From the IMG/VR virus record IMGVR_UViG_3300045988_044270, positions 1 to 13,327 of that record: a DNA stretch of 13,327 nt; one strand, written 5' to 3'. The notes under the pieces are model-generated. The model saw nothing but the letters and a program-made list of their open reading frames with translations, had not been told where the DNA came from and made no database searches. Below are positions 733 to 13,327 of the stretch, piece after piece. The stretch's first letter is position 1. Each line of letters begins with the position of its first letter. Source of the stretch: a virus. The translations under genes and the position numbers were made by a program.

Positions 733-921
733 ATGAATAATAGAGTTCGTAGATATAAGGTTATATCGCTATCCATGTATCCCGAAGATTTGAAGCGACT
801 AAAAGAAATTTGCGACATTAGCAGAATGGACAATCTTTCAAAGACTGCGCGACTCTGTATTAAAACCGTGTACAACGAATTGATGAGAAGGGGGCTTATA
901 AAGAATGGCACGATGGAATAA
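733..921 (+). CDS. Putative ribbon-helix-helix (CopG/Arc/MetJ-like) DNA-binding regulator, 62 aa
   Basis: The sequence RRYKVISLSMYPEDLKRLKEICDISRMDNLSKTARLCIKTVYNEL fits a beta-strand / helix / helix RHH pattern. I prefer ATG 733 over ATG 718 because GGGGGTTGCAACAATGAATAA mirrors the initiation region of the previous gene (GGGAAGTTGCAACATGAATAA). Its position directly upstream of the terminal protein gene matches regulator p4 in phi29 (an analogy in position, not homology). Confidence 0.5.
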   Translation: MNNRVRRYKVISLSMYPEDLKRLKEICDISRMDNLSKTARLCIKTVYNELMRRGLIKNGTME

Positions 922-1608: not shown

Positions 1609-3627
1609 ATGCTCAGCGTATATGATGGAATCCAAAAAATAACGGCGTTAACGCCTGATAATCCACGGGCTAAAATCGTATACGCTAATGCGCTGATGGC
1701 GTTTGACATTGAGACAACTCGCCTTGAAGATGATAACGCTGTAATGTACATTTGGCAATGCGGGCTATGTGTGGAGGGAGAATACTATATCACATATGGG
1801 AGAACGTGGGAAGAATGGACTGCATTACAGGAAGCAATAAATGCGCGACTGTGCGGAATTACAATAATTTGTTTTGTTCATAATCTTTCCTATGAGTTCC
1901 AATTCCTTGCGGGGCTTTACGAATTTTCCGATGTTAAGTGCCTTAAATCCCGAAAAATACTGTCCGCGACTTGTGGAAGAATCGAATATCGCTGCTCCTA
2001 TATTTGGACAAATAAAACGCTTTCAAAATTTCTAAAGGAAATGAATGTCCAACACATGAAGAAGTCAGGCGCTGAATTTGACTATTCTAAAGTCCGCTAT
2101 CCGTGGACAGAACTTTCAGAAGATGAGATTGAATATTGTCAAAATGACGTTATCGGACTACTTGAAGCTGCCGAAAAGAAGATTTCGCAAGATGGCGACA
2201 CTCTCTATACAGTTCCGCGTACGTCTACGGGCTACGTGCGCCGGGATGCAAAACAAGCGTTAAGCCAAACGCCACTTGGAGCGCTTAAACCCACAGAAGA
2301 AATTTACATAAAACTTCGCAAGGCGTTCAGAGGGGGGAACACGCACGCGAACCGGTATTTCGTCGGCAAGGTTTTGACGGGCGTGCAATCGGTCGACCGT
2401 TCATCAAGCTACCCTGATGTTATGCTAAATAACAAGTTTCCTATGAAATCATTCAAGAAATGCCCTGATGGAATAGCAACTATTAGGAGGGCGTTTTCAT
2501 CCGGGCTTGCAATTCTTTGTACGATGAGCATAACAGGCGCTACCCTGCGCAATCCGTTGTGGGGGTGCCCCTACATCCCCGTTAGCAAGTGCCAAATGCT
2601 TATAGATCCTGTGGAAGATAACGGACGAGTTCTTGAAGCGGATGCGCTGACGATTGAAGTAACAGAAGTAGATATGCAGATAATTCTTGAAGAATATGAT
2701 GGCGAATTTGATTTTACAGATATATACACGGCAGAGAAGGACTATTTGCCAAAACCGTTTACGGATTGTATAAAACGCTATTATACAAACAAAACATCAC
2801 TTAAAGGAATCGCCGGGAGTGAATATGAATACATGAAAAGTAAGAATTTGTTAAATAGCTTGTACGGTATGACAGCCACAGACCCCGGCAAAGATGATAT
2901 TATATTCGACGGTGTAGAATACATTCAGCAGGAAACAGACGTAATCAAAAATATCAATAAATCATTCCTCCCATATCAATGGGGCGTATGGGTTACCGCG
3001 TACGCAAGGCTTGAGTTGGAAGAAATGATAAAGATTGCGGGGAATAATTTTGTTTATGGCGATACGGATAGCTGTAAATATATAAAATCAGAATCAATTA
3101 GTTATGAATCATATAATAACAGATGCAAAACAGCATCCCTTGAGCATGGGGCGTGTGCCGTAGACCCCCACGGAACATTGCATTATATGGGCGTTGCAGA
3201 AACAGAGGGTGAATATTTCCAGTTTTTAACATGGGGGGCGAAAAAATATGCTTCACGGGATGAAAAGGGGCATATAGACATAACTATTGCAGGTGTACGC
3301 AAAAAATCCAGTAAAAACGCTGCTGGTGATATTGTGGAGTGGGGCGGTGATGATGAACTGGAAGAAGCAGGAGGACTTGCAAAATTCGCGCCCGGTTTCG
3401 TTTTCCGAAAAGCCGGAGGGCTTGAAAGCGTTTACAACGACCACGTACACAAGAAAATTAGCGTTGACGGGCATGAATTAACGATAACCCGAAACGTATG
3501 CTTACGCCCATCAACCTATGCTGTAGGAATTACTTATAAATACGCAGATTTGCTTGAGACATTGCAGAACACTTATATAAGCGTTGACGCAGACCGAAAT
3601 CTGTGCTATAATCTTATCAGGCGATAA
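1609..3627 (+). CDS. Family B DNA polymerase, protein-primed (phi29 gp2-like), 672 aa
   Basis: Exo I is FDIET (nt 1702-1716). Exo II is HNLSYEF (1879-1899). Exo III is YCQNDVIGL. Motif A is VDRSSSYPD, motif B is KNLLNSLYG, motif C is YGDTDS (3055-3072), and KKY is present. SD AGAAGGGAAG precedes the ATG. Confidence 0.95.
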   Translation: MLSVYDGIQKITALTPDNPRAKIVYANALMAFDIETTRLEDDNAVMYIWQCGLCVEGEYYITYGRTWEEWTALQEAINARLCGITIICFVHNLSYEFQFLAGLYEFSDVKCLKSRKILSATCGRIEYRCSYIWTNKTLSKFLKEMNVQHMKKSGAEFDYSKVRYPWTELSEDEIEYCQNDVIGLLEAAEKKISQDGDTLYTVPRTSTGYVRRDAKQALSQTPLGALKPTEEIYIKLRKAFRGGNTHANRYFVGKVLTGVQSVDRSSSYPDVMLNNKFPMKSFKKCPDGIATIRRAFSSGLAILCTMSITGATLRNPLWGCPYIPVSKCQMLIDPVEDNGRVLEADALTIEVTEVDMQIILEEYDGEFDFTDIYTAEKDYLPKPFTDCIKRYYTNKTSLKGIAGSEYEYMKSKNLLNSLYGMTATDPGKDDIIFDGVEYIQQETDVIKNINKSFLPYQWGVWVTAYARLELEEMIKIAGNNFVYGDTDSCKYIKSESISYESYNNRCKTASLEHGACAVDPHGTLHYMGVAETEGEYFQFLTWGAKKYASRDEKGHIDITIAGVRKKSSKNAAGDIVEWGGDDELEEAGGLAKFAPGFVFRKAGGLESVYNDHVHKKISVDGHELTITRNVCLRPSTYAVGITYKYADLLETLQNTYISVDADRNLCYNLIRR

Positions 3628-3658: not shown

Positions 3659-4006
3659 ATGAACACGAAGACTAATCAGAGCATTTCCCCGGCGGACCTT
3701 TACAAGCTTACGCTTTCTCGCGAAGGGCGCACAATGTCGGAGCTGATGACGAAAACCGTTCGCGTCGATGCATGGGCGGTGGCTGAAACAGTAGATAGTA
3801 ACGGGGAGTTTAAGCCGCGTTGCGGAATCATTGTTGATGGTGTCGCCTACATCACGAATAGCAGAGCGTTCAGCGATCGGCTTCTCGCTATTGTTGAGTA
3901 TCTCAGAAAGGCGGACATGGACGATGCAGGGTTTAACTTGCAGATTACGCAGATTCGGAGCAAGAATAGTCACAACTATACATCTTGCGAATTGATTCTC
4001 GATTGA
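3659..4006 (+). CDS. Small early protein (115 aa), possibly a phi29 p5-like ssDNA-binding protein
   Basis: Strong SD AGGAGGG 7 nt upstream. The C-terminal half (DGVAYITNSRAFSDRLLAIVEYL...FNLQITQIRSKNSHNYTSCELIL) resembles my recollection of the phi29 SSB pattern (DGSLYSAISK...FKVKVVQGTSSKGNVFFSLQLSL). It is the last gene of the replication operon. The function is tentative. Confidence 0.4.
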   Translation: MNTKTNQSISPADLYKLTLSREGRTMSELMTKTVRVDAWAVAETVDSNGEFKPRCGIIVDGVAYITNSRAFSDRLLAIVEYLRKADMDDAGFNLQITQIRSKNSHNYTSCELILD

Positions 4007-4011
4007 TGCAT

Positions 4012-4044
4012 AAAAGGCAGGGTCATCGCCCTGCCTTTTATTTT
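4012..4044 (+). terminator. Rho-independent terminator ending the left early operon
   Basis: Stem GGCAGGG (4016-4022) pairs with CCCTGCC (4029-4035), with a 6-nt loop. It is followed by TTTTATTTT and preceded by AAAA. Confidence 0.75.
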
Positions 4045-4056
4045 AGGAGGGGGCGT

Positions 4057-5076
4057 ATGAATAACCTATTTTTGGAAAATGGCTATGTTGATATGTCGCG
4101 AATCATAGAACAAAAATATACATTCATTTTGATGACGGGTGCAAGAGGTACTGGGAAAACATACGGCGCGCTTAAATATGTTATTGAACATAAAATGAAA
4201 TTTATCTATATGAGACGAACGAAACTACAAGCGGATGTTATTAGCGCGCCTGAAATGTCACCTTTTGCGCCCGTTTGCGATGATATGTCCTTGTCTCTCG
4301 AAATGGATAAGGTTTCCAAAGAAGCAACAGCTGTATATATCAACGAGGAAAGCAGCCCTGCCGGGTATGTTATGGCGCTGTCCGGTGTATCAAATATTCG
4401 GGGGTTTTCAGCTCATGACATTGAAATTATTATATTTGATGAATTTATCCCTGAATCGCATGAGCGCAGAATCAAAAATGAAGGGGATGCATTTTTTAAC
4501 GCATATGAAACAATAAATAGAAATAGGGAGCTACAAGGGAAGCCCCCTGTGAAGTGTTTATGCCTTGCCAATAGCAACAGCATTGTAAATCCGATTTTTC
4601 AAATTTTGGGGCTTATTACGATTGCTTATAAGATGGAAGAGAATGATATGCAGGAATATAAAGATGGCGAACGCGGATTATATCTGATAAACATGCGCAA
4701 TAGTCCCATAAGCCGGAGGAAGGGAGAAACCGCGCTTTATCGGCTTCTAAAGGATAATAAAATAAAAGACATGTCGCTTGAAAACCGATTTTTGGATAAA
4801 CCAGTATTACAAACCATGAGCGCGAACCTCAAAGAGTATACGCCTATCGTAACGTGTGGGGAAATCACAGTATATCGGCACAAGAGCAATCGAACGTATT
4901 ATATTAGCCCGCACGGGCAGGGAACGCGCCCGATATACAGCACAACGGAAAACGATTGTTTACGTTTCCGCACGCTTTATCGGTATCTGATGCAGGAATA
5001 TATTGCCCGAAAAATTTATTGCGAATCTCCGGCTTGCGAAATTGTTTTCTGTCAATACTTCGGGATAGTTAAATAA
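4057..5076 (+). CDS. DNA packaging (encapsidation) ATPase, phi29 gp16-like, 339 aa
   Basis: Walker A is GARGTGKT (nt 4138-4161; phi29 gp16 has GARGIGKS at the same N-terminal position). Walker B is IIIFDEF. Size is close to gp16. SD AGGAGGGGG (4045-4053) precedes ATG 4057. The longer ORF from 3985 would run through the terminator hairpin. Confidence 0.85.
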   Translation: MNNLFLENGYVDMSRIIEQKYTFILMTGARGTGKTYGALKYVIEHKMKFIYMRRTKLQADVISAPEMSPFAPVCDDMSLSLEMDKVSKEATAVYINEESSPAGYVMALSGVSNIRGFSAHDIEIIIFDEFIPESHERRIKNEGDAFFNAYETINRNRELQGKPPVKCLCLANSNSIVNPIFQILGLITIAYKMEENDMQEYKDGERGLYLINMRNSPISRRKGETALYRLLKDNKIKDMSLENRFLDKPVLQTMSANLKEYTPIVTCGEITVYRHKSNRTYYISPHGQGTRPIYSTTENDCLRFRTLYRYLMQEYIARKIYCESPACEIVFCQYFGIVK

Positions 5077-5079
5077 GTC

Positions 5080-5108
5080 TTGACAAAATTTAAAAATTAT
5101 GATACATT
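5080..5108 (+). promoter_or_regulatory. Near-consensus sigma-A type promoter
   Basis: TTGACA (5080-5085), a 17-nt spacer, then an extended -10 TGaTACATT (5100-5108). It starts 4 nt after the ATPase stop codon. The predicted TSS is around 5113-5116. Confidence 0.65.
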
Positions 5109-5112
5109 GATT

Positions 5113-5198
5113 ATGGCAATAGGGAAGCTCGAACGACAACCCCGGAAGGGTGAGCATGGCATAGTCGTATGCCTCGACCCCTATTGCCATTTTGTTTT
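5113..5198 (+). ncRNA. Candidate small structured RNA with paired 5' and 3' ends and its own terminator. It may be a pRNA-like packaging RNA, or alternatively a leader/attenuator of the late operon.
   Basis: P1 is 12 perfect bp, 5113-5124 (AUGGCAAUAGGG) with 5179-5190 (CCCUAUUGCCAU). P2 pairs 5127-5130 with 5152-5155 and encloses a CCC/GGG hairpin capped by a GGAA tetraloop (5141-5150) plus a 9-10 nt bulge. P3 pairs 5158-5163 with 5168-5173 and has loop GUCG. A U-tract UUUGUUUU lies at 5191-5198. The predicted TSS coincides with the 5' strand of P1. Confidence 0.5.
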
Positions 5199-5217
5199 CG
5201 GGGGGACAGGAGGGGAT

Positions 5218-5412
5218 ATGGAAATTTCCGATATTGTTACGCTAATCACAAACGTAGGGTTTCCGATTGCTTGTACTTGCGCGCTTTTCTATTTCTGGAA
5301 TAAGGAGCGGGAACAGCACCGCGTAGAAACAGCGGAATTAAAGGATGCTATCAATAATAATACGATGGTAATGCAGCGCCTCATTGATAAGTTGGGCGGT
5401 GATGGAAATTGA
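5218..5412 (+). CDS. YvrJ-family small membrane protein, holin candidate (64 aa)
   Basis: SD GGAGGGG lies 4 nt before ATG 5218. The sequence ITNVGFPIACTCALFYFW matches the YvrJ signature (N-x-GFPIA followed by a single TM helix), and a charged coiled C-tail follows. It is immediately upstream of, and overlaps, the endolysin gene. Confidence 0.6.
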   Translation: MEISDIVTLITNVGFPIACTCALFYFWNKEREQHRVETAELKDAINNNTMVMQRLIDKLGGDGN

Positions 5413-5897: not shown

Positions 5898-6226
5898 ATG
5901 TATCTGACATTTTGACGCTGGCAAAAGCTGGATTTACGGCAGAGCAAATCGGGAAGCTGATGACCGTAGATGCACCGGCACCGGTGCCGGCACAGGCACA
6001 GGCGCCGGCACAGGCACAGGAACCGGCACAGGCACAGGCACAGGCGCCGGCACCGGTGCCGGCACAGGCACCGGATAATACACAGGCGCAGTTTGAGAAG
6101 GTTTTCCAGCAGATTGCGAACCTTACGGGAATTGTGCAGAGGGGAAACATCGCAAACGCGCATCAGCCGGATTCACAGCCGCTGACGGCGGAGGATGTTC
6201 TTTCGGAAATCATCCGCCCGAACTAA
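5894..6226 (+). CDS. Putative scaffolding protein (110 aa) with a PAQ-rich low-complexity core
   Basis: It sits directly upstream of the MCP gene, as gp7 does for gp8 in phi29. The N-terminus is helical (ILTLAKAGFTAEQIGKLM), the linker is APAPVPAQAQAPAQAQEPAQAQAQAPAPVPAQAP, and the C-terminus is helical. ATGA overlaps the lysin stop. SD GGAGG is present. Confidence 0.55.
   Translation: MNVSDILTLAKAGFTAEQIGKLMTVDAPAPVPAQAQAPAQAQEPAQAQAQAPAPVPAQAPDNTQAQFEKVFQQIANLTGIVQRGNIANAHQPDSQPLTAEDVLSEIIRPN
5972..6074 (+). repeat. Hexanucleotide-type low-complexity tract (CCGGCA/CAGGCA units) inside the scaffold gene
   Basis: The 28-nt unit GCACCGGCACCGGTGCCGGCACAGGCAC (5972-5999) recurs at 6043-6070 with one mismatch. 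CAGGCA-type repeats lie between the two copies. Each unit contains the palindrome GGCACCGGTGCC. Confidence 0.85.
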
Positions 6227-6241: not shown

Positions 6242-7417
6242 ATGGCTAATACGCTTAGTATTGATAAAATTAGTACCCTGCTTAAAGCAGTTCTCAAGGA
6301 TGCAACCGGGCAGGATACAGCCGCGCTTGACACTAAGCAGTTGTTGACGCTCGGACAGAAGGCGTTGAAAACAGGGGCTGACCCTGTAATGAACGCAATT
6401 TCGCAGATGCTTTCGCGAACAATTTTTTCCAGCCGCCCATACAAAGCGAAGTTTGAGGGTATGCGGATTCCCGGCGACCAGTGGGGAAACTGGGTGAGGA
6501 AAATTAAGACGATTGACGACCCGGATGACCTGACCGACAACCCTTACTGTGATTTGACCGACGGGCAGAGCGTCGACCAATACACGATTCACAAGCCGAA
6601 GGTTGCACAGTTTAACTTCTACGGGCAGCAAAGCTACGAATACGAAAAAACGATTTTTGAAACGCAGTTAAACACGGCGTTTAATTCGGCAGAAGATTTC
6701 GGTGCATTTATTTCGATGATTTTGACGAATATGAATAACAAAATCGAAAAGACGCACGAAGAAACCGCGCGCGCAACCGTAGCTGGGTTTGCCGCTGGCA
6801 AGATTGCACAGAACGCCGATGTTATTCATCTGCTGACGGAGTACAACACCGTTACAGGGCTTGAGTTGACTGCGACAACCGTTATGCAACCCGCAAATTA
6901 TAAAGCGTTTACGCAGTGGGCTTTTTCCCGACTTGCTAACCTGTCCGATATGCTGACAGAATATTCTAGTCTTTATCAGACAAATAGTGCAGATGGCGTA
7001 TTCCTCCAGCACAGCCCGAAGTCCGCGCAGCGTGTTTATATTAACTCGATGTTTATGCATCAAACTAACATGATGGCGCTTGCGGACACGTTCCATGATA
7101 ATTTCCTTCGCATGGCGGGTGATGTTGAATATGTCAATTACTGGCAGATTATGACCGACCCACAGAAAATCCATGTAGTAAAGCCGCAGTATCTCGCGGC
7201 TGACGGCACTATTGCAACGGCGACGGCTGACGTAAATCAAGGCAACGTACTTGGTATTATCTGTGACCGTGACGCTTTCGGGTACAGCCCGATTCTAACG
7301 CGGCAGAGGGTGACGCCTCCGAACGCGAAGGGCGAATATTACAACATTTTTTGGAAGTACAACGAGCGTCATGCTATTGACTTTACCGAAAAGGGTATTG
7401 TTATTCTTATGGATTAA
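6242..7417 (+). CDS. Major capsid protein, phi29 gp8-like (HK97 fold), 391 aa
   Basis: SD GGAGGTG is present. The segments VMNAISQMLSRTIFSSRPYKAKF and QLNTAFNSAEDFGAFISMILTNMNN parallel the phi29 gp8 segments (FITSLVDRIGLVV...LKKF and [25 protein letters not shown]) as I recall them. It follows the scaffold gene and is followed by a strong terminator. Confidence 0.8.
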   Translation: MANTLSIDKISTLLKAVLKDATGQDTAALDTKQLLTLGQKALKTGADPVMNAISQMLSRTIFSSRPYKAKFEGMRIPGDQWGNWVRKIKTIDDPDDLTDNPYCDLTDGQSVDQYTIHKPKVAQFNFYGQQSYEYEKTIFETQLNTAFNSAEDFGAFISMILTNMNNKIEKTHEETARATVAGFAAGKIAQNADVIHLLTEYNTVTGLELTATTVMQPANYKAFTQWAFSRLANLSDMLTEYSSLYQTNSADGVFLQHSPKSAQRVYINSMFMHQTNMMALADTFHDNFLRMAGDVEYVNYWQIMTDPQKIHVVKPQYLAADGTIATATADVNQGNVLGIICDRDAFGYSPILTRQRVTPPNAKGEYYNIFWKYNERHAIDFTEKGIVILMD

Positions 7418-8297: not shown

Positions 8298-9749
8298 ATG
8301 GAAGCATGGTTTACAAATGTCGGGAAACGCAGAAATTCAACCTACACCCCATCGGTAACATCTTATGAAGATAGCCTAAAGTTTGATGTTGTGCTGAAGG
8401 ATAATACAAATGTGCAAAATCCTGTTATTAGCCTGATTTGGTCAAACAACCGTTATCCGCCACAAAACCTTAATTATGTATTTATTCCATTGTTCGGGCG
8501 CTCATATTTCGTGGAAAATGTCACGTTCGAGCGTAACAGGGTATTTTTTACACTAAGTACCGATGTTTTAGGGTCGTTTTGGGGGTTGCTGAAGAAGTCG
8601 ACACAATACGTTATTAGGTCAGCAAGCAAGTATAATTCGCGGATTATAGATACTTCTTTGCCAATTTTGGCAAAAGGGGAAAAGCAAACCTACGAAATAG
8701 ATAACACTGGATATGTATCAGTTATGTCTGAAGGATGGTATGTTGTAGGTATCATCGGCGCGGAAGGTAACGCAGTTGGTGCTGTATCGTACTATGTGAT
8801 GACACAAACACAATTTACATATTTTAGAAGCAAGTTACTGACTGATTATAGTTATATGGGCGTAAATGTCGCAGAAATTTCGGCGGAACTGTTAAAAGCT
8901 ATTGTAAATCCTTTCCAATACATCGTATCTTGTAGATGGTATCCGATAAAGCCTCCGACATTAGACACTTTAACAACTGTTAAAGTTTCAGGTTGGGAAT
9001 TGGCGGGCACATCCGCGCGCCTGTTATCTTCATCAACCGTTACAACAAAATCTTTTTACTGCGGCACTGGATATATTAAACAGGATGAATGGAAAAATTG
9101 CTATCCGTATAGGCAAATAGCAATCAATCTTGCTCCGTGGGGGTATTTTCAAGTCGACACAACATCGCTAACAAAATATGGCGAAAATATAACAATCAGG
9201 GCATATATAGATTTTACAAGCGGAGGTTCAATCGCTTATTATTTGTGCGGAGGGGAGGCTATCAAATATCATGTGTTAGGAGTTCGAGAATCACAATTTG
9301 GAGTTGATATCCAATTAGCACAAACTGGATACGGGCAAGATGTTATTTCAATAGCAGGAAGTGTCGCGGCCGGAGTTGGCGGCGTCGGTGCTGCGATTTT
9401 GGGGAATGCAAAAGCGCTAAATAGTGTAACTGATAGTATTAATAATATAGCAACCTCAATGTCAGATGGTTTTGGCTCCGTATCCTCATTTTCAGCAAAC
9501 ACCTCTATTGCAAAATACGCAATGCCGCAATATGTAGATGTTGTATATACATATACTGCCGAACAAAATGCCAAAATAAATGGGCGTCCTCTTTGCGCAA
9601 CAGTTAAATTGGAGACCTTATCAGGATATACGCTTATAAATAATCCCGATACTTCGGCAGTAACCAATTGTTACGGAGAAGAACGCGATGAACTAACACG
9701 CTATATGCAATCAGGATTTTATATAGAGGAGGCCGAAACCGGTGAATAA
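8298..9749 (+). CDS. Tail knob / distal tail tube protein, phi29 gp9-like, 483 aa
   Basis: The N-terminal segment NYVFIPLFGRSYFVENVTFERNRVFFTLSTDVLGSFW parallels phi29 gp9 YIMFQN..KWFYAFVTELEFKN..VHFEIDVLQTW. A Gly/Ala-rich hydrophobic segment (IAGSVAAGVGGVGAAILG) parallels the gp9 loop GGGISAGASAAGGSALG. The gene order knob then connector matches phi29. Confidence 0.7.
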   Translation: MEAWFTNVGKRRNSTYTPSVTSYEDSLKFDVVLKDNTNVQNPVISLIWSNNRYPPQNLNYVFIPLFGRSYFVENVTFERNRVFFTLSTDVLGSFWGLLKKSTQYVIRSASKYNSRIIDTSLPILAKGEKQTYEIDNTGYVSVMSEGWYVVGIIGAEGNAVGAVSYYVMTQTQFTYFRSKLLTDYSYMGVNVAEISAELLKAIVNPFQYIVSCRWYPIKPPTLDTLTTVKVSGWELAGTSARLLSSSTVTTKSFYCGTGYIKQDEWKNCYPYRQIAINLAPWGYFQVDTTSLTKYGENITIRAYIDFTSGGSIAYYLCGGEAIKYHVLGVRESQFGVDIQLAQTGYGQDVISIAGSVAAGVGGVGAAILGNAKALNSVTDSINNIATSMSDGFGSVSSFSANTSIAKYAMPQYVDVVYTYTAEQNAKINGRPLCATVKLETLSGYTLINNPDTSAVTNCYGEERDELTRYMQSGFYIEEAETGE

Positions 9750-10665
9750 TCCCCCCTTCGATTACAATCGTATAAATGCATACGAATCCAGCATTTCTCC
9801 CTCTACTTGCCATACCAAAAATACGGCACTTTTCCAATACTATCAACGCTATTTATTCCAGAAACTAACAAGCCAATTCAAATGGAGCTTGCCCGAAGGT
9901 TGGAGCGATACATATTTTCTCGGTTGCTTGTACGCATGGGGAAGCGTGGCGATTTTTAACAGCAAGCGCTACGGTGTAATTCCGCAGGCTGGCGCATTGT
10001 ATGGATACAATGTTTACTATCAACCAACAACTGTTTTGATTGCAAACCCGCTTCTTCCTCCGATGCGCTTGCAAATCGACAAGGATTGCGTTCTTTTCCG
10101 GTTACAACGCGATTATCACGGCGCGCTAGACATTGTTAATTATTACGCAGACTTGCTTGCCACCTCTTGCGAATCGCTTGCCATGAACATAATGAATTCT
10201 AAACTTTCCTATGTGTTCGCGTGCAGTTCAAAAAATGCCGCACAAACTGGCAAAGAATTGATGGACAGGGTAACATCTGGAGAATTGGCTGTATGGGTGG
10301 ATAAAGCCCTTTTTAACGATGACGGTTCCCCCTCGTGGGCACCATTCGCGCAAAACGTAGGACAAAACTATATCGCGGACAGAATTATTTCCAACATGAG
10401 GCAAATTGAAGCAGAATTTGACACCCGCGTAGGGATACCGACTTGTAACACCGACAAAAAAGAACGGTTGATTACAGCCGAAGCGGAACGGAACGACGTT
10501 GAAACAGACGCAATCGTTGCGCAATGGTTCGACACCATCCAGGAGTGCATCCGCAACGTGCATACTGCGTTCGGTGTGGCAATCACTTGTGAGCGACGTT
10601 ATCCGATTGAGCATAACAAAAATGGAGGTGACAAGATTGAGCGTGATGCTGGCGACAATGTATAA
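9742..10665 (+). CDS. Head-tail connector (portal, upper collar), phi29 gp10-like, 307 aa
   Basis: The start is GTG 9742, 9 nt after GAGGAGG, overlapping the knob stop. YLFQKLTSQFKWSLPEG...GSVAIF parallels gp10 YLQSLAYQLFEWENLPP...GYVGFY. NTDKKERLITAEAERNDVE parallels [21 protein letters not shown]. Confidence 0.8.
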   Translation: MNNPPFDYNRINAYESSISPSTCHTKNTALFQYYQRYLFQKLTSQFKWSLPEGWSDTYFLGCLYAWGSVAIFNSKRYGVIPQAGALYGYNVYYQPTTVLIANPLLPPMRLQIDKDCVLFRLQRDYHGALDIVNYYADLLATSCESLAMNIMNSKLSYVFACSSKNAAQTGKELMDRVTSGELAVWVDKALFNDDGSPSWAPFAQNVGQNYIADRIISNMRQIEAEFDTRVGIPTCNTDKKERLITAEAERNDVETDAIVAQWFDTIQECIRNVHTAFGVAITCERRYPIEHNKNGGDKIERDAGDNV

Positions 10666-11247: not shown

Positions 11248-12702
11248 ATGGGTATTTGGGAACAATTCCCGTTTACGAATTTCCACGAACAGAATCTTGA
11301 TTGGGCTTATAATTCAATCAAAGAACTTGATGGAAGAGTTGACACGCTGGAAAAGAGCGGCAATGTAAGCAAAGAATATGTTGACGAACAAGATGCTGCG
11401 CTTGACGAAAAAATCAGCGGCGAACGTTCCGCGCGAACAACCGCAGACCAAGCACTCCAAAATCAGATTACACCGCATACGGCAAGTATTAATGGTCTAA
11501 ACGAGCGAATGGTGGAAGCTGAAAAAAATATTGGCGTAAAGCCTTCTGTGCCTAATTTCAGCAGCATTTGGAGCACAATAGGCGAATACGGTGCTACACA
11601 GGCAATCGGCAGTAAGTTGCTTTCAGTTCAGACGGCGAGCAAAGAAAATCTTCGTTCTATTGCGGGAACCGATGGCATGTATGATATTACCAAGGGCACA
11701 ATTCAGGCGCGCCTTGACATCATAGAGGAAGCCCTTAAACCCGGTTCTCTGGTAAAACTTAACGGCGAATATCAAATTGCTATTTCTCCCGGAACTGCAA
11801 GAGGGACTGAATTCACCCCCAAAAAAGAAATCACACCGTTTGATTTCGCGATTTGTGCGCGCGAATCATCTGTTGCGCATACAGATGGAGATAGTAATAA
11901 CGCATTTTTGATTGTTAAGCCTATAAAAACTACAACCGAAAATAAATATAATAATTTTGTAGTTGTAGCAGACAGCCCCGGAGAAACGACAACATTTAAT
12001 ATGGTAGTTCACGTTTGGACTTTTGCAGTTGTGGCGGGCAGTTCTGGCGGGGAGCAGTATGCAACGGTATCCTATGTAGATGAAAAAACTGGTGAGCTGG
12101 CGACAGAACTTGGAAACGTAGAAGCGGATGTGCAGGATGCATACACCAAAGCGGAGACGGCAGACAACAATGCCGCAATTGCCAAGTCAACCGCAACAAC
12201 GGCTGCTTCTACTGCTTCTTCCGCACTGGAAAAAATCGGCACGAGACCTGCAGAATCGAAATATAACACCCTCTGGGATACAATCGGTACTTGGTCGGAA
12301 AATGTCCCGATGGCTCTCAGAATCAATCCTGCCTATAATTGGAGCCGGAATAATCGTTCCGCTATCAATGGTACTTCGGACTACCCAACAGACAAGGGTT
12401 CTATCAATTCCCGGCTAACCGATTTGGAAACAGCTATAGCCAAATTCCAGAATATGCCAAAAATTGCGAGGGGACACGTGCTTGCATACCAAGACCAAGA
12501 CACCATTATTGATTATCAGTCGGCGGGATTTACCGAAATTCCGACCGTGGTTGCGACTTATGCAAACACTGGGGCTGTTGCAGATAGTGTAACACGCAGT
12601 CAGTTAATTTTCGCCAAAACTACAAGTTCAGCAAAAATCAGGCTTTCCGGTACATCGACGCATGAGCAGTTCGCCGTAGACTGGATTGCAGTTGGTGTGT
12701 AA
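11248..12702 (+). CDS. Tail fiber / receptor-binding protein, 484 aa, built from two tandem paralogous modules
   Basis: SD AGGAGGTG lies 8 nt before ATG 11248. The N-terminal motif FHEQNLDW is typical of phage fibers. Coiled-coil heptads are present. The C-terminus (...IRLSGTSTHEQFAVDWIAVGV) resembles the gp53-like / lectin-like fiber tip pattern that ends in W-I-A-x-G. Confidence 0.7.
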   Translation: MGIWEQFPFTNFHEQNLDWAYNSIKELDGRVDTLEKSGNVSKEYVDEQDAALDEKISGERSARTTADQALQNQITPHTASINGLNERMVEAEKNIGVKPSVPNFSSIWSTIGEYGATQAIGSKLLSVQTASKENLRSIAGTDGMYDITKGTIQARLDIIEEALKPGSLVKLNGEYQIAISPGTARGTEFTPKKEITPFDFAICARESSVAHTDGDSNNAFLIVKPIKTTTENKYNNFVVVADSPGETTTFNMVVHVWTFAVVAGSSGGEQYATVSYVDEKTGELATELGNVEADVQDAYTKAETADNNAAIAKSTATTAASTASSALEKIGTRPAESKYNTLWDTIGTWSENVPMALRINPAYNWSRNNRSAINGTSDYPTDKGSINSRLTDLETAIAKFQNMPKIARGHVLAYQDQDTIIDYQSAGFTEIPTVVATYANTGAVADSVTRSQLIFAKTTSSAKIRLSGTSTHEQFAVDWIAVGV

Positions 12703-12706
12703 CAAT

Positions 12707-12734
12707 AAAGGGAGGGCATTGCCCTCCCTTTATT
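12707..12734. terminator. Bidirectional intrinsic terminator between the convergent late (+) and right early (-) operons
   Basis: Stem AAAGGGAGGG (12707-12716) pairs with CCCTCCCTTT (12722-12731), with loop CATTG. T-runs follow on both strands. The stop codon of the - strand gene lies in the stem. Confidence 0.75.
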
Positions 12735-13208: not shown

Positions 13209-13327
13209 CCCTTTCTGGCTTGTGAGGTTTTCCTTCCTCTTTACGATTATATAATATCACTAATCATTAGTAATGTACATGCCCTGTTAGTTTAGTTTTG
13301 TCCGCGAATTTTTCAACTGATAGGAAT
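13209..13327. repeat. Right inverted terminal repeat (119 bp)
   Basis: Exact reverse complement of 1-119. Confidence 0.97.
13246..13279 (-). promoter_or_regulatory. Mirror copy of the ITR promoter, driving the right-end operon on the - strand
   Basis: Same sequence as 49-82 because it lies inside the ITR. It points inward toward the - strand ATG at 13198, whose SD (AAAGGGG) is again the inner end of the ITR. Confidence 0.45.

Follow-up and report, generated by a model that had tools for sequence, protein, structure and literature searches.

A covarying three-way-junction RNA of phi29-like phages as a candidate minimal counterpart of phi29 pRNA

To our knowledge, the packaging RNA (pRNA) of phage phi29 and its relatives is the sole RNA component of any viral DNA-packaging motor. 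Here we consider a small-RNA cassette, consisting of a promoter, a branched RNA and a U-tract, at positions 5080–5198 of the IMG/VR virus record IMGVR_UViG_3300045988_044270, which was analysed over its full 13,327 nucleotides (nt; hereafter the window), and we ask how this RNA compares with pRNA. According to a 2024 review (PMC11476376), no phages other than phi29 and its Bacillus relatives are currently known to have pRNA; the twelve pRNAs contributed by an Infernal survey of 2025 (PMC12670572) all came from phages of Bacillus or Cytobacillus. A 2012 paper on podoviruses of Clostridium perfringens mentions pRNA only as the ATPase partner in phi29 (PMC3362512), and nothing in our full-text literature searches reported a pRNA from gut phages or from phages like the Guelinviridae. 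The RNA family to which the window RNA belongs appears to be new: it is widespread, it departs from all described pRNAs in its smaller size and its placement, and it carries an additional conserved pairing; its role as a pRNA is putative.

The described pRNAs that serve as our comparison group (Rfam family RF00044, Phage_pRNA) come from the Bacillus phages phi29, PZA, M2/Nf, B103, SF5 and GA-1 and their relatives. When nt 320–201 (minus strand) of phi29 were folded for comparison, a long helix A was followed by one unpaired U, a 9-base-pair (bp) helix C and a 9-nt bulge that is found on the 5' side only and ends in AACC beside the 4-bp helix E; the return strand, without an unpaired base, then leads through UUU to hairpin D, with loop UGGUU, and from there directly back into helix A.

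The cassette and its transcript

RNAfold applied to 5109–5200 of the window gives a three-way junction closed by a 12-bp helix (5113–5124 with 5179–5190), with a minimum free energy (MFE) of -35.6 kcal/mol and z = -3.91; none of 200 shuffled sequences was as stable. The closing helix and the multi-branched fold had been proposed in an initial annotation made from the letters alone, as had a likeness to the architecture of phi29 pRNA, and both proposals hold: the order of elements (helix A, an arm C/E with its bulge, then D) equals that of phi29 domain I. The features of the cassette, all on the plus strand, are as follows.

5080–5108: sigma-70-type promoter (-35 TTGACA at 5080–5085, 17-nt spacer, TG at 5100–5101, -10 TACATT at 5103–5108)
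5113–5124: 5' strand of helix A, pairing with 5179–5190 (RNAfold; two-sided changes in 10 of 10 modelled pairs in the family)
5115–5187: family core, from helix A to helix A (covariance model R1, 34.5 bits, E about 1e-6)
5115–5198: predicted small RNA of about 84 nt, from predicted start to U-tract (R1 match at 5115–5187; RNAfold fold)
5127–5131: 5' strand of helix C, pairing with 5151–5155 (fold; two-sided changes in 4 of 4 pairs)
5132–5140: 9-nt bulge, 5' side only, AACGACAAC (fold and family alignment), in which ACGAC at 5133–5137 complements the helix D loop
5139–5151: helix E hairpin; ACCC/GGGU with pentaloop CGGAA at 5143–5147 in the family reading, CCC-GGAA-GGG at 5141–5150 in the MFE reading
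5158–5173: helix D hairpin, GGCAUA-GUCG-UAUGCC (fold and alignment), whose loop GUCG(U) at 5164–5168 pairs with the bulge
5174–5178: 5-nt junction strand from helix D to helix A, UCGAC in the window and most commonly AAGAA in the family
5179–5190: 3' strand of helix A (fold and family alignment)
5191–5198: U-tract UUUGUUUU directly 3' of helix A, an intrinsic-terminator-like 3' end (from the sequence)
5196–5203: anti-E motif UUUCGGGG, complementary to CCCCGGAA at 5140–5147 (5' strand and loop of helix E), a pairing that excludes helix E

Within this fold, two unpaired A separate helix A from helix C, and two unpaired bases lie between arm C/E and hairpin D. The complementarity noted initially between CGAC in the bulge (5134–5137) and the GUCG loop (5164–5167) is indeed present, and it widens to 5 nt (ACGAC 5133–5137 with GUCGU 5164–5168). 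A second copy of AUGGCAUA does occur at 5156–5163, as had been pointed out, but the two competing folds that were built on it did not survive comparison: the pairing between AUGGCAUA and the helix A 3' strand belongs to the window alone, the best such run elsewhere in the family being 3–4, and we have rejected it as not conserved.

The near-consensus promoter is where it had been placed (TTGACA, 17 nt, TG-A-TACATT). It begins 3 nt beyond the stop codon of the ATPase gene, which ends at 5076, scores 10/12 with an extended -10 element and ranks second among the plus-strand promoters of the genome. A promoter scoring at least 9/12, with its -10 element ending 6–7 nt before helix A, is found in 70 of 81 distinct family members, as compared with 1.4% of random positions. 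Since the -10 element of the window ends at 5108, the start is expected at about 5114–5116, and the first one to three pairs of helix A may therefore be absent from the RNA; the predicted transcript of about 84 nt keeps 10–11 of the 12. In other words, the start does fall near the base of the 12-bp helix, as initially proposed, but perhaps not on its first bases.

A terminator directly behind the closing helix had also been proposed, and the U-tract UUUGUUUU is there in the window; in the family only about a quarter to a half have one: of the 9 nt that follow helix A, at least six are U in 20/81 members and at least five in 37/81. The branched fold is always kept. One clade (L045–L048 and L052) has instead a separate canonical terminator hairpin, GGCAGGCGGU...ACCGCCUGUUUUAUU, some 1–30 nt after the three-way junction, and many family members have neither a U-tract nor a separate terminator. 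The layout of that clade, in which the junction is followed by the separate terminator and then by the anti-E motif (ACCGGGA), recalls phi29 pRNA domain II and a cassette of Streptococcus phage Cp-1 that is described below.

The promoter, fold and two long-range pairings are conserved in a family

A profile search of IMG/VR with the ATPase found more than 575 relatives, of which the best 80 (40–47% ATPase identity, mostly 12–14 kilobases (kb) long) were fetched together with seven GenBank records, and in most of the fetched loci a three-way-junction RNA lies within 0–40 nt of the ATPase stop codon. Covariance model R1, built from 24 diverse members, detects a single copy in each of 87 out of 98 loci with ATPases that are 33–95% identical to that of the window, and every copy lies on the gene strand, 3' of the ATPase gene. 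The family core measures about 70–80 nt and its helix A 10–12 bp; we refer to it as the mini type. R1 is specific to this type, giving no convincing detection in phi29, in the Clostridium phages CI55P1 and CI461P1 or in Amedibacillus phage AD70P3, and an exact-pattern scan for the window RNA core in 185,579 representative bacterial genomes found nothing. One divergent member is present at 6026–6095 of MT835901 (L106; R1 18.3 bits), where a bulge AAAAGGAA is accompanied by an 8-nt complement, UUCCUUUU, and there is no clear D stem.

Does the fold covary? Across 70 distinct aligned sequences, treated as independent so that relatedness inflates the counts somewhat, standard pairs occupy 82.5% of pair cells as compared with 49.9% in shuffles, and the covariation score is 0.749 as compared with 0.179 in shuffles, none of 500 of which reaches 0.749. 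With the pairing partners slid by one to three columns the score falls to 0.10–0.20; this control retains the relatedness and yet drops to background. Two-sided changes are seen in every helix (A, 10/10 pairs; C, 4/4; E, 4/4 and 100% paired; D, 4/4), and the frequent G-U pairs fix the structure to the plus-strand RNA. Conservation of sequence is concentrated in the E pentaloop, which is CGGAA in 60 of the 70, and in its C-G closing pair, and the bulge and D loop are each mostly 7 nt long (65/70 and 48/70, respectively). Among individual departures from the window, the closing A-U pair of helix D is broken in L006 and L009, and a helix A G-C pair has become A-U in L011. The comparative analysis that the initial annotation had suggested as a check thus comes out in its favor, and on comparative grounds the window feature is confirmed as a member of a covarying RNA family, far beyond chance.

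The pairing between the bulge and the D loop was analysed separately, as the longest Watson–Crick run between each bulge and its own D loop in 49 distinct combinations. The mean run is 4.45 (5 or 6 in 27 cases), as compared with 2.48±0.12 when loops are permuted among members (maximum 2.92 in 2000 trials) and 2.66 when the letters of the loop are shuffled. There are 30 distinct pairing cores, for example GGUCA/UGACC, AGUCA/UGACU, GCACA/UGUGC, GUAUCA/UGAUAC and UAGCA/UGCUA, as well as GACCA/UGGUC, ACAGC/GCUGU, AAUCA/UGAUU and GUCG/CGAC, the last being the reverse of that in the window. In a fixed register, two-sided changes affect four of the five bulge/D-loop pairs, and the paired bulge bases directly adjoin the 5' strand of helix E. 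The complementarity first seen in the window is therefore genuine, covarying across some 30 sequences, and it is a hallmark of pRNA. Loop covariation in phi29 was itself reportedly first read as an intramolecular pseudoknot, and complementation between two mutants is reported to have later shown it to be intermolecular.

A second long-range pairing, missed in the initial annotation, involves the anti-E motif. In many members the 5' strand of helix E and the first loop bases recur in reverse-complement form 7–12 nt after helix A; in the L045–L048/L052 clade this motif is located beyond the extra terminator, and about 40% of members are without it. In GenBank record MT835998 CGGACGGA pairs with UCCGUCCG, and other pairs include GGCCGGA/UCCGGCC, AGCCGGA/UCCGGCU, AUCCCGG/CCGGGAU and GCUCGGAA/UUCCGAGU. 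The flanks of the palindromic CCGG core covary, with on average 1.95 of 3 flank pairs formed as compared with 1.13±0.17 in permuted combinations (0 of 5000 as high), and the first flank position is C:G in 13 and G:C in 6. Since the anti-E helix excludes the perfectly supported helix E, the two pairings must alternate. The motif lies 3' of the U-tract, 5–10 nt 5' of the ribosome-binding site, and its place after the U-tract excludes classical antiterminator action. The initial annotation had offered, as an alternative, a transcription attenuator with two competing folds: the pairing it had in mind, through AUGGCAUA, is not conserved, and a different one, helix E against anti-E, covaries. This pairing points to an added regulatory layer. 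On comparison of these relatives, then, the promoter, the fold and two covarying long-range pairings are shown to be conserved in the family.

Close relatives also bear on whether the stretch codes for protein. A frame is open in the window from TTG 5080 to 5412, and a 76-amino-acid open reading frame (ORF) runs along the minus strand at 4960–5190. Thirteen IMG/VR contigs with ATPases 90–95% identical to that of the window have the element directly after the ATPase stop, with a nearly invariant core; what varies among them is the promoter spacer, the tract behind helix A and even which N-terminus the next gene has. ATG 5113 is replaced by TTG, TCG, GTG or TCA, in-frame stops cut the N-terminal extension in six of the thirteen (L001, L002, L004, L007, L010 and L011); seven of them (L004, L005, L008 and L010–L013) have an interrupted minus-strand ORF. 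Coding on either strand was rejected because of these in-frame stops and variable start codons, and the view taken initially, that the feature is an RNA structure and not an extension from ATG 5113, is upheld.

Genome context and longer RNAs in other lineages

The window is a complete linear genome, because it carries perfect 119-bp inverted terminal repeats at 1–119 and 13209–13327; its G+C content is 44%. Judged by these repeats and by gene content, it is that of a phi29-like podovirus, its proteins matching PF03175, PF05894, PF05352 and PF25622 as well as PHROG families. Genes that place it in this group, and the neighbors of the cassette, are listed here.

1609–3627: protein-primed family-B DNA polymerase
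4057–5076, plus strand: gp16-type DNA packaging ATPase (PF05894 Podovirus_Gp16, E 4.5e-21; phrog_2150 terminase)
5218–5412, plus strand: 64-amino-acid YvrJ/holin-like protein, first gene of the lysis/structural block (phrog_4898 holin, E 4e-5; PF12841, weak)
6242–7417: phi29-type major capsid protein
9742–10665: gp10 connector
elsewhere in the window genome: NlpC/P60 lysin
elsewhere in the window genome: tail lysozyme

By their ATPases, the nearest cultured relatives are the Amedibacillus phages AD70P2 and AD70P3 (Guelinviridae), at about 36% identity; identity to the ATPases of the phi29 group is about 25–27%. The ATPase gene probably starts at ATG 4057, behind the Shine–Dalgarno sequence GGAGGGGG, and not at TTG 3985 as in the ORF list, because a terminator hairpin falls inside the longer ORF. 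This hairpin, AAAAGGCAGGG-UCAUC-CCCUGCCUUUU at 4012–4044 followed by AUUUU, stands between the ORF at 3659–4006 and the ATPase gene, which is thereby flanked by a terminator on one side and the small-RNA promoter on the other. The Shine–Dalgarno sequence of the 64-amino-acid YvrJ/holin-like gene is GGAGGGG at 5209–5215. Promoter-like sites also occur in each terminal repeat (12–39 and 49–77, mirrored at the right end), giving outward-to-inward promoters at both ends. An 11-bp hairpin, AAAGGGAGGGC-AUU-GCCCUCCCUUU, at 12707–12731 looks like a bidirectional terminator between convergent units, the last plus-strand gene ending at 12702 and a minus-strand ORF at 12730. Within the DNA polymerase gene, a weak Rfam match to RAGATH-12 at 2792–2869 (30.7 bits, gathering score 75; E 0.006) is most likely due to chance; in general, the weak matches to RAGATH-12 and STnc away from the cassette, in scans of the window and seven related loci, are either terminator-like or due to chance. 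A search of the window for tRNA and tmRNA genes gave none.

Are there RNAs of this layout beyond the mini type? A generic finder based on RNALfold was set to report folds in which a closing helix encloses two branches, the first with a bulge on its 5' side only and the second being a hairpin, and in which bulge and loop have at least 4 nt of complementarity. It recovers the window RNA and gives pRNA as its sole match in the phi29 genome, and in 14 dinucleotide-shuffled genomes it made no match with a run of at least 5 and a folding free energy (dG) of -30 or below, and two with a run of at least 4 at that dG. The finder is specific but insensitive: its reliance on the MFE parse makes it overlook the genuine RNAs of L101 and L102. 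Within the window, neither the Rfam scan nor the finder turned up another pRNA candidate; a weak second finder match at 740–859 (plus strand, inside a coding sequence; dG -23.4, AUGU/ACAU) is at the level of shuffled genomes. Large unannotated gaps in Enterococcus phage vB_EfaP_2/Chl-5 (L122, 4571–4839) and in Cp-1 (L121, 5166–5410 and 17448–17895), which lie at the early/late boundary or after the late genes of these phi29-like phages, yielded nothing convincing with this insensitive finder.

Two longer RNAs deserve mention. In Clostridium phage CI55P1 (L104, OP172759), an unannotated 107-nt RNA at 4764–4872 lies between the polymerase and ATPase genes, with a promoter (TGcTACAAT), a helix A of about 24 bp, a 9-bp helix C, a bulge AUACCA, a D loop CUGGUAA and then UUUUUCUUUU; bulge and D loop can pair as UACCA/UGGUA. 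The same type of region (4750–4880 in L104) is found in CI461P1 and in L108–L120, and among nine relatives 9 of 40 predicted pairs show compensatory changes, the variation among so few sequences being shallow. The RNA of CI55P1 and CI461P1 shares with the mini type a promoter, paired ends, a three-way junction, a 5'-only bulge (here of 6 nt) that complements the D loop, an end in a U-tract and an adjoining gp16 gene; it differs in its dimensions, which are nearer to those of phi29, in its place upstream of the ATPase gene and in going undetected by R1.

The second longer RNA is in Streptococcus phage Cp-1 (L121, Z47794), where an unannotated promoter–RNA–terminator cassette occupies the orf7–orf8 gap on the minus strand, 4836–4658. 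A promoter (TTGACA-17-(TG)TATGAT, 4836–4808) is followed by a 117-nt three-way junction (4802–4686, -41.9 kcal/mol) and by a terminator hairpin with a U-run (4683–4658); a 7-nt 5'-only bulge, AUGGUUA, lies beside helix E, and six base pairs of complementarity, UGGUUA/UAACCA, link bulge and D loop. The cassette lies between the early genes and the scaffold/capsid operon, antisense to both, and being antisense to its neighbors it must be an independent gene and cannot be a leader. It resembles the mini type in being a promoter–RNA–terminator unit at the early/late boundary with an identical order of elements, and differs in its 117-nt length, its long interrupted helix A, its 11-bp helix C, its separate terminator, its E loop CAAG and its antisense orientation. 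The Cp-1 genome paper of 1996 is said to have proposed a pRNA. With a pRNA-like cassette also in this Streptococcus phage, the initial remark that pRNA has been described only for Bacillus phages was too narrow, and as intermediate forms the CI55P1 and Cp-1 RNAs link the mini type to RNAs of phi29 size.

Readings of the cassette and comparison with known systems

On balance, we think it somewhat probable that the cassette is the gene for a small non-coding RNA of about 75–85 nt and that this RNA is a minimal counterpart of phi29 pRNA. If so, host RNA polymerase would start at the strong promoter and place the 5' end at the base of helix A, and in the window transcription would end at the U-tract behind helix A. 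If phi29 is a guide, each RNA copy would pair through its bulge with the D loop of the next to form a ring on the portal vertex of the prohead, in which the conserved CGGAA loop of helix E might touch the prohead and helix A would project and dock the gp16-type ATPase. Read-through transcripts would arise because the RNA gene sits upstream of the late genes, and we speculate that in these the anti-E motif unfolds helix E, so that copies borne on mRNA would be kept from the pRNA role, or that it couples the RNA to late expression. More tentatively, we propose as a possibility that pRNA is an ancestral, near-universal part of the phi29-type motor, found in phages of gut Clostridia and Erysipelotrichales (73–80 and 107 nt) and in Cp-1 (117 nt), and that the gut form is the smallest natural pRNA, with a built-in anti-E switch that would unfold the prohead-binding arm or couple it to late expression.

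Several observations weigh against a pRNA role. Every mini-type RNA reads in the same direction as the first lysis/structural gene and lies immediately 5' of it, a site that one would expect of a leader; the gene in question is scaffold-like in L018–L020, and in most members it is YvrJ/holin-like. The link to the ATPase gene drawn initially fails in MT835998, where the RNA (1047–1121, R1 35.1 bits), its promoter TTGACA-17-TGATACTAT and a U-run precede a YvrJ-like gene and thus head the lysis/structural operon, the ATPase gene being on the other strand and 8 kb away. The RNA tracks the 5' end of that operon and not the ATPase gene. Its U-tract is missing in half or more of the family, and phi29 pRNA has no counterpart of the covarying anti-E pairing. 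By our own reasoning the bulge/D-loop pairing is sterically feasible both within one molecule and between two, and the sequences fit pairing in cis and in trans alike. In length the mini RNA falls about 40% short of phi29 domain I; its helix A has 10–12 bp as compared with about 25 bp, and its D-to-A junction has 5 unpaired nt where phi29 has none. Finally, RF00044, whose gathering score is 100 bits, matches nothing in the window at E up to 10, nor does any other Rfam family at the site; it matches nothing at E up to 1 in L101, L102, L028, L035, L018 and L082, in a run that gave phi29 145 bits, and nothing in the CI55P1 region, so that the Infernal check suggested initially was negative in the window and in seven other loci at permissive thresholds. 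R1 does not match phi29 either. As neither model detects the other's family, homology is not shown and what is shared is the architecture alone. Taken as a whole, the pRNA-like reading of the initial annotation stands in the fold, its covariation, the bulge/loop complementarity and the order of elements, and falls short in the tie to the ATPase gene, the Rfam match, the competing folds and a terminator common to all members.

Might the RNA then be a cis-acting structured leader of the late operon, its bulge/D-loop pairing forming a compact intramolecular pseudoknot and either a CGGAA-binding factor of phage or host or the helix E/anti-E switch gating read-through or translation? Helix A and the U-tract would then terminate constitutive transcripts, much as lambda PR'-6S RNA-tR' does before the holin gene. 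We consider this unlikely but far from negligible. The position of every mini-type RNA before the first late gene suits such a role, as does MT835998, in which the RNA accompanies the late operon; the anti-E motif near the Shine–Dalgarno sequence (5–10 nt), which covaries with helix E and excludes it, is the signature of a switch; a subset of members has U-tract terminators; and a 2-nt linker over a 5-bp helix, reminiscent of an H-type pseudoknot, would on our steric reasoning permit the intramolecular fold. The motif lies on the wrong side of the U-tract for a classical antiterminator, however, and with about half of the members lacking a terminator and about 40% lacking the motif, no single cis mechanism covers them all. 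The Cp-1 cassette has the same architecture yet runs antisense with a terminator of its own, the CI55P1 RNA precedes the ATPase gene, the window matches no Rfam riboswitch or leader family, and a leader would make it a coincidence that a pRNA topology occurs in exactly the group of phages that uses pRNA.

A base-pairing riboregulator without any role in packaging seems to us quite improbable. On this reading the terminated small RNA would use the exposed CGGAA loop of helix E to pair, in trans or in cis, with a UUCCGG-type motif shortly 5' of the ribosome-binding site of the first late gene, and this pairing would set the timing of lysis or of late expression. About 40% of members lack the motif and yet keep the whole RNA, CGGAA loop included, the covarying bulge/D-loop pairing and the closing helix are left unexplained, and the Cp-1 and CI55P1 versions have other E loops with no such motif noted. 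What speaks for it is the complementarity of 6–8 nt between the helix E 5' strand and loop and the downstream motif, with covarying flanks, the closeness of that motif to the Shine–Dalgarno sequence, and a strong promoter and terminators that would make the RNA abundant. Practically negligible, in our estimation, is any trivial origin, be it as an ordinary branched terminator that ends the ATPase gene, as a fold that arose by chance or as a segment of some longer ORF (the extension from 5080 or 5113, or the minus strand at 4960–5190). The open frame from TTG 5080 to 5412, the 76-amino-acid minus-strand ORF and a hairpin with a U-tract that resembles a terminator could suggest one; but the extension and the minus-strand ORF are interrupted in close relatives, where ATG 5113 also varies, compensatory changes in all helices among ATPases only 33–47% identical exclude chance, and it is the three-way junction that is conserved and not the U-tract.

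If the RNA is a pRNA, a family present in at least 87 gut phi29-like contigs bears on whether the motor RNA is an ancient core part or a late add-on, and suggests that RNA-geared DNA packaging extends beyond Bacillus phages. A natural minimal pRNA would also reveal which parts are dispensable, which is relevant to the mechanics of the motor and to three-way-junction RNA nanotechnology, for which the family additionally supplies some 30 natural orthogonal bulge/loop pairs. If it is a late-operon leader instead, it would belong to a class of regulatory RNA that is new for phages, with two long-range pairings that covary. Cultured relatives (Amedibacillus phage AD70P3, Clostridium phages CI55P1 and CI461P1, and Cp-1) make direct tests possible.

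In closing, we return to the described systems that the cassette most resembles. The lambda PR'-6S RNA-tR' late leader and the HK022 put and lambda nut leaders are RNAs of processive antitermination. Like the cassette, they place a short, structured, terminated transcript from a constitutive promoter ahead of holin or structural genes, and the conserved pentaloop hairpin of the mini RNA could be a protein site such as boxB; they differ in consisting of one or two simple hairpins without a closing helix, a three-way junction or a covarying loop–bulge pairing, our analysis identified no counterpart of Q, N or put, and many mini members lack a U-tract. From phi29 pRNA the mini RNA differs in its core of 73–80 nt (domain I of phi29 has 117 nt and the complete RNA 174 nt), its helix C of 4–5 bp instead of 9 bp, its C-to-D junction of 2–3 nt in place of UUU, its conserved E pentaloop CGGAA, and a gene that is internal (5115–5198 of 13,327) and co-oriented at the head of the late block, whereas that of phi29 is at the left end and points outward. 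With phi29 pRNA it shares a phi29-like podovirus as its source, one that encodes a protein-primed polymerase, a gp16 ATPase and a gp10 connector; a strong sigma-70/sigma-A-type promoter of its own; 5' and 3' ends paired in helix A; a three-way junction with its arms in the order C/E and then D; a 5'-only bulge whose 3' bases abut a 4-bp helix E; and a complementarity, covarying across relatives, between that bulge and the loop of hairpin D.

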